From contig PDOO01000034.1 in NCBI GenBank assembly GCA_002742885.1, forward strand, positions 6,326 through 70,325: DNA of 64,000 nucleotides, given 5' to 3'. Under the pieces are notes generated by a model. It saw only the letters and a list, made by a program, of their open reading frames with translations. It was not told the DNA's origin and made no database searches. Below are positions 13,530 to 15,141 of the stretch, piece after piece; the stretch's first letter is position 1; each line of letters starts with the position of its first letter. A program made the position numbers and the translations under genes. The stretch comes from Candidatus Cloacimonadota bacterium (GTDB taxonomy: Bacteria; Cloacimonadota; Cloacimonadia; Cloacimonadales; GCA-2742885).

Positions 13530-15052
13530 CAGCTGTAATCTCCTTTTTTATAAAAATTATAATTAATTTCTCGGAAGATATTGCTTTTTTGCAATAATTC
13601 GTCATAACTTCCCGAACAGGATATTTTATTGTTATGCAAGACTATAATTTCAGAGCTTAACTCTTTGATTACGTCAAGATCATGACTGATAATCAAGCCC
13701 GGAGTATTTTTAATTGATTTTTTTAATTTCTTAAGCAAAACATTTTTCAAAATACTGTCCAAACCGGTAAAAGGTTCATCAATGACAAAAAGCGATTTAT
13801 CCTCTGCGGAATAAATAAAACGTCCTATATTTATCCGTGATTTTTCGCCTCCGGATATGAAACTGCCGTTAATTCCTAATTCTCTGCCTTTTAAATCTTC
13901 CAGATTCAATTCTCTTATCGTTTTTTCAAACTTATCTTGATCAAACTGTCTTCCCAATACCAAATTATCGACAATTCCCTTGTTCAAAATTTCCGCTTTT
14001 TGAGGCAAATATTCCACATTAGCGAATATTTGATTAAAATTATATTCCGCAATATCGTTTCCCAGAAGCTTAACCTTGCCTTCAAAATCCGATTCCAATC
14101 CCAAAAGACACGAAATCAGAGAAGATTTGCCTTCCCCCGAAAGTCCGACAATACCGATTCGGGAATTTTTCTTCAGCTTAAAAGAAATATCAGATAAAAT
14201 TACTCTTTCTTCTCGGACAAGCGATAAATTTTCAACTTCAATAAACCGGTTTTCTTTAGATTCAATCTTGTTATTTTTTATTTTTAAATTATTGTAAAAA
14301 TTCAATACCCGTTTTATATGAATACTCGAAGAAACTGCGCTTTCGCTCAAATATTTCAAACCCTCCACCGGCGCCATCAATAAGCTGTAATAATAAGTTA
14401 TCGCCAAATAACGTCCTATAAGCATTTCGCCCGATTGGATTTTTTTAAAACAATATATTAAAAGCAACACGGATACGAATCCGGACGGAATATCCATGGC
14501 GAATATTTTTAAAAGTCCGTGTTTTATATTCAAATTTGCTTGATCCTTTTTGAGATCGGATGTTAATTTTCTGTATTCCTTCAGTCGTATTGCTATATAA
14601 TTGTAAATATTTAAAAGCATTAAGTTATCCAATGTCTCGTTCATAAAACTGTATAACCGACTGCTTTTCTTATTCATGGCAGTATAATACTTATTAAATA
14701 TGCCTGTAAGAAAATTATGATAAATGAAAGTTGACGTCATAGATACAATAAAAATAATAAAAATATTTTTATCCCAAATATAAATTGTCAATAAAATGGG
14801 AATTACTCGCAAAAGAGTAATGGTATTGTAAAGCAAATTTGACGAGAAAACATCTAAACTGCTTCCCGTATCATTATTTATGATTTGAGAATAATATCCT
14901 GAACCTTTCAGAGCAATAAGACGATAATTCATCGACAAAGATTTTGTAAAAACTTTTTCATGCAATTTAAAACCCAATTCAAGACTTTTCCGAGAAGATA
15001 TATAAGTTCCTATGATTCCGCAAACGTAATTAAATAAAAAAATCTCAAACAA
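13529..15052 (-). CDS. ABC exporter, fused TMD-NBD half-transporter, N-terminally truncated
   Basis: 507 aa. Walker A GLSGEGKSS near residue 303, signature ISGGEKSRI, Walker B LFVIDEP, H-loop ISHD. From memory, Walker A sits about 70 residues earlier than in MsbA-type exporters, so TM1 appears to be missing. There is no C39 peptidase domain. The annotated TTG start is only 1 nt after the AAGGAG. Confidence 0.75.
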   Translation of the reverse strand: MFEIFLFNYVCGIIGTYISSRKSLELGFKLHEKVFTKSLSMNYRLIALKGSGYYSQIINNDTGSSLDVFSSNLLYNTITLLRVIPILLTIYIWDKNIFIIFIVSMTSTFIYHNFLTGIFNKYYTAMNKKSSRLYSFMNETLDNLMLLNIYNYIAIRLKEYRKLTSDLKKDQANLNIKHGLLKIFAMDIPSGFVSVLLLIYCFKKIQSGEMLIGRYLAITYYYSLLMAPVEGLKYLSESAVSSSIHIKRVLNFYNNLKIKNNKIESKENRFIEVENLSLVREERVILSDISFKLKKNSRIGIVGLSGEGKSSLISCLLGLESDFEGKVKLLGNDIAEYNFNQIFANVEYLPQKAEILNKGIVDNLVLGRQFDQDKFEKTIRELNLEDLKGRELGINGSFISGGEKSRINIGRFIYSAEDKSLFVIDEPFTGLDSILKNVLLKKLKKSIKNTPGLIISHDLDVIKELSSEIIVLHNNKISCSGSYDELLQKSNIFREINYNFYKKGDYS

Positions 15053-15062
15053 ACTCCTTATT
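15032..15062. repeat. 31-nt exact repeat, copy 2 (now forms the 5' end/RBS of the ABC gene)
   Basis: Identical to 11566-11596. In this copy the same bases are read in a different frame as the ABC N-terminus (MFEIFL). Confidence 0.9.
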
Positions 15063-15141
15063 TCTCAGTTAAATTGAAAAATATTATCTGTTTTACAAAG
15101 GATTTACAATTATTTTTATAAAGAGTTAAAACATCAGCAAA
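15058..15141 (-). pseudogene. Relic of the 3' end of a third Cys-peptide gene
   Basis: A startless minus-strand frame reads FADVLTLYKNNCKSFVKQIIFFNLTEK*. The segment tataaaaataattgtaaatcctttgtaaaacag aligns with peptide A's 3' end aagcaaaataattgtaagtgcgttataaaatag (...KQNNCKCVIK*), and is followed by the same spacer and RBS. Confidence 0.5.

Follow-up and report, generated by a model that had tools for sequence, protein, structure and literature searches.

Introduction

Whether a gene that lacks its own beginning is a broken gene, a gene put to a different use or an error of assembly is the question raised by a 64-kb stretch of DNA (hereafter the window) from a Candidatus Cloacimonadota metagenome-assembled genome (MAG), for which one sequencing run, SRR6011893, is available. 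Within it, an ATP-binding cassette (ABC) exporter of 507 aa is encoded immediately downstream of a 31-nt sequence, here called R, that also forms the start of a neighbouring gene for a beta-propeller lipoprotein (propeller-2). The exporter is 100% identical to NCBI protein CSB55_07295 (71.5-kb contig), deposited as a hypothetical protein, and a literature search for the run accession found nothing. An earlier note, made from the letters of the sequence, had taken R as the mark of a recombination that removed the 5' end of the ABC gene.

We put at roughly three in four the probability that R is a real rearrangement scar, in which a block of ~85 nt has been fused non-homologously to the interior of the ABC gene, producing a 5'-truncated and poorly translatable gene. 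The ABC gene is most likely an ordinary gene remnant in a scar-rich locus and not a new mechanism. Every gene discussed lies on the minus strand, and gene order is given 5' to 3' on that strand. The features from which the argument starts are as follows.

15063-15116, minus: relic of a peptide-A-like 3' end plus spacer, 72-80% identical to 11597-11649, with one indel
15032-15062, minus: repeat R, the copy upstream of the ABC gene, with AAGGAG at 15059-15054, a TTG at 15052 (ABC frame) and a TTG at 15048 (propeller frame)
15052-13529, minus: the ABC exporter open reading frame (ORF), 507 aa, 5'-truncated; transmembrane domain (TMD) without the first transmembrane helix (TM1), nucleotide-binding domain (NBD) intact
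15010-15048, minus: 12-codon dead-end ORF, (M)RFFYLITFAES-stop, starting at TTG 15048, 5 nt after AAGGAG
11836-11621, minus: peptide A, 71 aa
11566-11596, minus: repeat R, the native copy, comprising the ribosome-binding site (RBS), spacer and first 5 2/3 codons of propeller-2
11582-10533, minus: propeller-2 lipoprotein, 349 aa, the gene to which the native copy of R belongs

Results

A propeller start stands in front of the exporter gene

The copies of R at 15032-15062 and 11566-11596 (AATAAGGAGTTTGTTTGAGATTTTTTTATTT) are identical over all 31 nt, stand in direct orientation 3466 nt apart and are the only two in the window even when up to three mismatches are allowed; 100 dinucleotide shuffles give an expected number of 0.00. 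R is composed of AAGGAG, a 5-nt spacer (TTTGT) and TTG AGA TTT TTT TAT TT. These are an extended Shine-Dalgarno (SD) sequence, the start codon and four further codons, each of them already the synonym that A/T preference would favour. The native copy encodes the start of propeller-2, whose product begins MRFFYLFLLIVFWTGC, a lipoprotein-type signal. R was thus correctly described beforehand as carrying the AAGGAG and MRFFY codons of that gene.

The likeness extends upstream of R. The 54-nt stretch 15063-15116 aligns with the 3' end and spacer of peptide A with a Smith-Waterman score of 42, against 15.8 +/- 2.5 for shuffled sequence, and 0 of 300 shuffles reach 42. In translation the relic gives K N N C K S F V K Q, to which Q N N C K C V I K stop corresponds in peptide A, and the peptide-like remnant that had been suspected here is real. 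Similarity to peptide A ends sharply at ~15116, so relic and R together make a block of ~85 nt, not a whole decayed peptide gene. In the remainder of the 387-nt spacer upstream of the relic, resemblance to peptides A and B (the latter the tandem neighbour of A) is indistinguishable from that of shuffled sequence. A peptide relic reaching beyond 15117, including a 37-aa ORF at 15239-15126 with a signal-like start, was considered and rejected as no better than shuffles. Downstream of 15032, similarity to propeller-2 was not found.

The DNA searches covered 185,579 GTDB representative genomes and the JGI metagenome contigs, and the core of R is absent from both. This bears on the idea of a dispersed element, regulatory or mobile, made up of the 31 nt or of the whole 85 nt; it might be a cassette for translation initiation, a recombination site or an RNA element. 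Two direct copies, a strong RBS and an exact core within a diverged flank are what such an element might show. Yet we find two copies in 64 kb and none in the genomes and contigs searched; the 85-nt block has no RNA structure signal (fold z-scores of -0.26 and -0.04 against shuffles) and no Rfam match; no recombinase or transposase occurs among the Pfam-annotated gene calls in the 10 kb upstream of the 197-aa gene that precedes the ABC gene; and one of the copies is simply the functional start of propeller-2. We hold this explanation to be extremely improbable.

By our own calculation, the probability of a run of 31 matches within an 85-nt block at ~80% background identity is ~0.02. An exact R amid a diverged flank would reflect either recent homogenisation or copying, or conservation while R was still serving a propeller gene.

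The exporter ORF lacks its first transmembrane helix

The ABC ORF is truncated. The Pfam ABC_membrane (PF00664) match begins at profile position 50 of 274, from query residue 4, and NCBIfam alignments begin at model positions 64 (MsbA), 55 (PrtD) and 198 (LssB). The closest homologue, P0002, comes from another Cloacimonadota MAG (574 aa, 40% identity, 98% query coverage), followed at 28-31% identity by P0003-P0007 (580-597 aa), among which P0003 is found in Pseudothermotoga on four contigs. In a MAFFT alignment, P0002-P0007 and P0012 carry 64-74 residues ahead of the first column of the window protein, and a hydropathy scan places TM1 at residues 20-38 of P0002, with no counterpart in the window protein. 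TM1 had been named among the parts that might be lost, and these extra residues and the scan bear that out, as they do the fusion of a genuinely truncated gene to a block made of a peptide-A end, an RBS and a propeller-2 start.

Protein searches covered 5.8 billion proteins (word-indexed search) and 1.84 billion representatives (exhaustive HMMER search, best 150 hits). The full-length relatives that HMMER aligns from the first 13 residues of the query place those residues at their own positions 60-77; the sole exception is one 545-aa protein, in which the query start falls at residue 35. Shorter matches (215-447 aa) span part of the query and resemble gene fragments. No full-length relative beginning at TM2 is found among the best 150 hits of 1.84 billion representatives. 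The earlier note had named two findings that would refute its reading, relatives with the same short N-terminus and a repeat that is a common element; both checks went in favour of the note.

No N-terminal fragment of the ABC gene is found elsewhere in the 64-kb window at E <= 1. A closer orthologue with an intact 5' end was not found either: the best hit among the 5.8 billion proteins is 40% identical, the cluster of P0001 is a singleton, and the JGI metagenome contigs contain no exact match to a 26-mer taken from the 5' end of the ABC sequence. A scan of representative-genome contigs with the ABC sequence returned generic ABC genes and one Pseudothermotoga member of the subfamily. A sequence search of solved structures matched generic ABCB/ABCC exporters alone and was uninformative about the N-terminus.

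What follows the missing part is complete. The PF00005 match (E 1.4e-22) spans profile positions 1-136 of 137, and Walker A (GLSGEGKS), the Q-loop (Q351), the signature (SGGE), Walker B (VIDEP) and the H-loop (H457) all fall in subfamily-invariant columns, in agreement with the earlier report of intact motifs. R, read in another frame, supplies ABC residues 1-7 (MFEIFLF), and native ABC sequence runs from ~N8. The breakpoint can be resolved to a few bases only, since P0002 has F-N-Y at the same spot and a TTT microhomology is possible.

The well-spaced start codon is out of frame

A TGA at 15067-15065 closes the ABC frame upstream, which rules out an upstream extension of the ORF. The first start in the ABC frame is therefore the TTG at 15052, 1 nt after AAGGAG. 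A GGAG-type motif precedes ~30 of the 43 long ORFs of the window, and clear motifs (at least 5 nt) lie 3-8 nt, once 10 nt, before the start; the 1-nt spacing of the ABC gene is the sole outlier. The TTG at 15048 keeps the ideal 5-nt spacing of propeller-2 but is out of the ABC frame and opens the 12-codon ORF. Both the poor spacing of the sole in-frame TTG and the short frame had been pointed out before and are as described. Propeller-1, the gene that follows, has its own AAGGAG 10 nt upstream of its ATG.

The junction is present in an independent assembly

R is exactly 31 nt long, as is the only other exact repeat of such length in the window, and 31 is a common k-mer size. An assembly artefact was therefore the most serious rival to be considered: a metagenome-assembly chimera formed at a shared k-mer, the real ABC gene being full-length. 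The MAG origin of the sequence and its single sequencing run are compatible with such an error.

The Logan assemblies of run SRR6011893 (k=31) are independent of the deposited contig. Three of their contigs break at R. Contig SRR6011893_12663 (49.7 kb), which carries the 197-aa gene, ends at 15033, on one base followed by the first 30 nt of R. Contig SRR6011893_259809 (1570 nt) begins at 15061, on the final 30 nt of R, continues as AATTACGTTTGCGG.../AATTACGTTTGCGGAATC... and runs through the whole ABC gene. Contig SRR6011893_35759 (5037 nt) begins at 11595, and there propeller-2 comes after the same 30 nt. These breaks are the exact de Bruijn signature of a genuine shared 31-mer with two real continuations. 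Moreover, the first 31-mer of SRR6011893_259809 consists of 30 nt of R and the first ABC base, so R is physically contiguous with the ABC gene in the reads.

The junction between R and the ABC gene is thus very probably no assembly artefact: an independent k=31 contig runs from R 1.5 kb into the gene. The two-in/two-out node allows a single linear path that takes in all edges, which is the path of the deposited contig; the 5.8 billion proteins include no ABC variant from this sample that is full-length or N-terminal (the next hit is 40% identical), and no ABC N-terminus is encoded in the window. A chimera is very unlikely.

The ABC-carrying Logan contig stops at 13492, 37 nt into propeller-1, in the A/T-rich signal-peptide region, where the window has no repeat; this end explains why propeller-1 is missing from that Logan assembly. 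Logan contigs carrying propeller-1 or peptide A were looked for and are not on record.

Relatives of the exporter lie beside radical-SAM maturases

Synteny in the relatives, which the earlier note did not cover, indicates what kind of exporter has been truncated. The subfamily is small and rare. A gene for a radical S-adenosylmethionine (rSAM) protein with a SPASM domain lies directly upstream of the ABC gene in P0002, P0003 and P0006, that is, in all three lineages with a readable upstream region; in P0005, a fourth subfamily member, an IS110 transposase stands there instead. All three maturases have TIGR04463 (Cys-rich-peptide maturase) as their best NCBIfam match, with scores below the cut-off, and are accordingly relatives of that family and not members.

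At the locus of P0002, the Cloacimonadota relative (positions 21-3744 of JBHPBX010000004.1, GCA_042572585.1), three tandem 44-aa Cys-rich peptides are encoded between maturase and exporter, with CC pairs and repeated G-x-C-C motifs (e.g. MFTWYQKGTLNLSKYSTQPACGIAGACCLAGACCKSGTCCLSNF). This locus looks like an undescribed ranthipeptide-like cluster for a ribosomally synthesised and post-translationally modified peptide.

In the 64-kb window no rSAM homologue is found at E <= 1 by tblastn with two of the subfamily maturases. The window peptides A and B have Cys-rich C-termini but signal-like N-termini and are not similar to the three tandem peptides. With no maturase found in the window and no peptides there that resemble those precursors, the ABC gene is best seen as the remnant of an exporter module.

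It had also been suggested that the lost end encoded a leader-peptidase domain. This does not hold for the subfamily: no C39 domain (PF03412) is present in the window protein or in P0002-P0007, and the closest full-length relatives, at 571-597 aa, have no room for one. Without C39 in the close relatives, the missing piece is TM1 with the N-terminal elbow, not a leader peptidase.

A second scar lies on the far side of the exporter

The junction at R is not the only trace of rearrangement, and the relics on the far side of the ABC and propeller-1 genes are likewise additional to what had been noted. The surrounding genes and the relics in the gap between propeller-1 and peptide B are listed in order.

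16033-15440, minus: 197-aa protein, first in order
15439-15053, minus: 387-nt spacer between the 197-aa gene and the ABC ORF
13529-12573, minus: propeller-1 lipoprotein, 318 aa
12572-12066, minus: 507-nt gap between propeller-1 and peptide B
12390-12423, minus: relic of the last codons of the 457-aa protein, its stop and the spacer before the TolC start, 91% identical to 7577-7611
12252-12381, minus: relic of an internal TolC-like piece (~codons 320-362), 131 nt, 82% identical to 6489-6616
12065-11853, minus: peptide B, 70 aa, with AAGGAG 7 nt upstream
10536-10018, minus: 172-aa CxxC protein
10021-8957, minus: propeller-3, 354 aa, DUF5128
8957-7584, minus: 457-aa membrane protein with weak thioredoxin-like hints
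7574-6249, minus: TolC-like gene
6246-3202, minus: RND pump

The gap between propeller-1 and peptide B holds the relic of a second junction between a 457-aa gene and a TolC gene, with ~960 nt of interior deleted. The mismatches shift the gap copy towards A/T, as would happen to a copy in decay. Inside the TolC relic lies the only other exact repeat of at least 31 nt in the window (12323-12353 = 6558-6588), also exactly 31 nt. The three relics (peptide-A/propeller-2 junction, 457-aa/TolC junction and TolC interior) are collinear with the main operon and bracket a 2.6-kb segment (15031-12424) that contains the ABC and propeller-1 genes. On the simplest reading of this collinear bracketing, the locus is the neighbouring operon in a second copy, degraded and rearranged. 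ABC and propeller-1 are still whole in this putative copy, the other pieces of which are at most 130 nt long.

The length shared by the two exact repeats, 31 nt, is a coincidence for which we have no explanation, and the Logan contig carrying propeller-2 (SRR6011893_35759) ends exactly at the second repeat (6559). In both relics the TAG stop of the paralogue reads CAG (15091-15089; ~12401-12399), a T-to-C change opposite to the A/T bias of the region. A diversity-generating retroelement was considered as the origin of the ~100-nt repeat pairs and rejected, the mismatches being ordinary A/T-biased transitions and not adenine-specific.

GC content is 21-31% across 7584-15439, against 35-40% in the flanks and ~36% in the genome, which fits an accessory or horizontally acquired region. 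Peptides A and B are encoded in tandem with good RBSs and have Cys-rich C-termini sharing Y-x-C-D-C ... C-x-C (YCDCTLDNPTGFCYCCY... in peptide B and ...YLCDCVDPKQNNCKCVIK in peptide A); neither has a Pfam or NCBIfam match, and no DNA-level similarity between them is detectable. The three lipoprotein beta-propellers are distantly related (23-25% identity), and one reaches Pfam DUF5128; propeller-2 is a distant paralogue of this 354-aa protein (8957-10021). In the word-indexed search, propeller-2 matched only itself, and propeller-3 gave two marginal hits. The 457-aa and 172-aa CxxC proteins (~21% GC) are without family assignment; the former has a CxxC region, in which thioredoxin- and glutaredoxin-like hits stay below threshold, and behind it a membrane part with several passes. 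Taken with the Cys-rich peptides, these two proteins hint at a possible periplasmic thiol-redox role.

The truncated gene keeps an intact reading frame

Several observations weigh against a simple remnant. The ABC ORF has 507 codons without a stop or frameshift in a genome of ~36% GC, and every NBD motif is kept. It retains 89 of the 189 positions that are invariant in P0003-P0007, against 91 of 189 in the full-length P0002, so the ORF gives no sign of decay. As would be seen in a working operon, its stop overlaps the start of propeller-1 (TGATG). R is exact, but the flanking relics differ from their paralogues by 9-28%; were the junction as old as the relics, survival of the ABC ORF would have needed selection. 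Finally, the databases searched hold no relative more than 40% identical, hence the ancestral arrangement is not directly visible. A fully intact ORF means that the event was recent or that the gene keeps some function. The alternatives are thus a young truncation and an ORF that remains under constraint, perhaps through a residual function of its own or through a need of propeller-1 translation for it.

The same observations can be turned into a case for a truncated ABC protein that is still expressed and useful, co-opted by the peptide/propeller operon, the grafted RBS block being kept by selection. Translation might start at TTG 15052, reach the ABC frame from the MRFF frame by a -1 slip on the T7 run or be coupled to the 12-codon ORF. 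MFEIFLF, encoded by R, would then supply the rest of a TM2-like N-out anchor, and the product would be a 5-TM half-transporter or a partner bearing an NBD. The intact frame and motifs, the conservation equal to that of P0002, the overlap with propeller-1, an exact R beside a flank of 72-80% identity and the survival of ABC and propeller-1 as whole genes all speak for this, as does the run of hydrophobic residues at ABC positions 2-19, followed by RK. Against it, the 1-nt RBS spacing is unique among the 43 ORFs and the start with good spacing lies in another frame; R, being identical to the start of propeller-2, was not shaped for this role; no TM2-starting full-length relative is seen among the HMMER hits; and the usual rSAM partner is missing from the window. 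TM1 is an integral part of the type IV ABC exporter fold. We consider expression with a useful product unlikely.

A stronger form, in which the grafted block is adaptive and a TM1-less 5-TM exporter has been recruited without its rSAM partner into a lineage-specific operon that combines Cys-rich peptides exported by Sec with orphan beta-propeller lipoproteins and proteins of a thiol-redox type, is more doubtful still; if true, the persistence of ABC and propeller-1 as the only intact genes in an eroded operon copy would reflect selection. The start context, the want of full-length relatives starting at TM2 and the structural role of TM1 likewise make a working TM1-less exporter, as judged from sequence, distinctly unlikely.

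Discussion

We propose that the ABC gene was cut by a rearrangement and now lies in a decaying operon copy. A block that runs from a peptide-A-like tail through a spacer and the AAGGAG RBS to nt 17 of a propeller-2-like ORF would have been joined to about codon 65-71 of the ABC gene by non-homologous, at most microhomology-mediated, recombination. As the join is out of frame, the RBS would now drive the 12-codon dead-end ORF, leaving the ABC gene with a TTG 1 nt after the RBS; the protein, if made, would lack the N-terminal elbow and TM1, and the gene is probably poorly expressed or non-functional. A second copy of the neighbouring operon would once have stood here, its interior lost or replaced, with the ABC and propeller-1 genes lodged in it, the segment being non-homologous at either end. 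The cutting of the ABC gene presumably also parted it from its maturase and substrates. The order and mechanism of these events we infer; what we observe directly are the repeat, the truncation, the reading frames, the junction in the reads, the relics and the synteny of the relatives.

The recombination between repeated peptide-propeller units that was first suggested is not supported: a propeller 5' end is joined to the interior of an unrelated ABC gene, which makes the junction non-homologous, and there is only one intact peptide-propeller unit. Nor is there direct evidence of a deleted propeller gene beyond its first 5 2/3 codons. A simple tandem duplication was also considered as the origin of the join between R and ABC and was rejected as insufficient, the peptide relic being 72-80% identical beside an exact R and the TolC and 457-aa relics lying between propeller-1 and peptide B.

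The remnant is of an ordinary kind, though unusually well supported for a MAG. For annotation, CSB55_07295 should be marked as what 5' truncation has left of an exporter of rSAM-modified peptides, which avoids counting a working transporter or inferring peptide export for the neighbouring propeller and peptide genes. The case serves as an example of how breakpoints in an independent k=31 assembly can validate a short repeat in a MAG, and of an accessory low-GC operon eroding via several short-range rearrangements. Were the truncated protein made and functional, it would bear on whether a type IV ABC exporter works without TM1.

Compared with the homodimeric type IV ABCB-like half-transporters of its own subfamily (P0002-P0007), the window gene has the same domain order, a complete NBD, TM2-TM6 and the coupling-helix region. 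It differs in lacking the first ~64 residues (elbow helix and TM1) and a normal RBS and start, and it has no adjacent rSAM/SPASM gene and no peptides in the window similar to the CC-rich precursors, a propeller lipoprotein standing downstream instead. With the peptidase-containing ABC transporters (C39 plus ABC; TIGR01193, NHLM_micro_ABC1), it shares a weak full-length similarity of the TMD and NBD core and the presence of Cys-rich peptide genes nearby. However, neither it nor its close relatives have C39, for which 571-597 aa leave no room, and the window peptides carry Sec/lipoprotein-like signals, not double-glycine leaders. With 5'-truncated remnants and fusion pseudogenes, which arise by illegitimate recombination or deletion, it shares truncation relative to all relatives, a start replaced out of frame and other gene fragments in the locus; it is set apart from them by an ORF without internal stops, frameshifts or measurable extra divergence.

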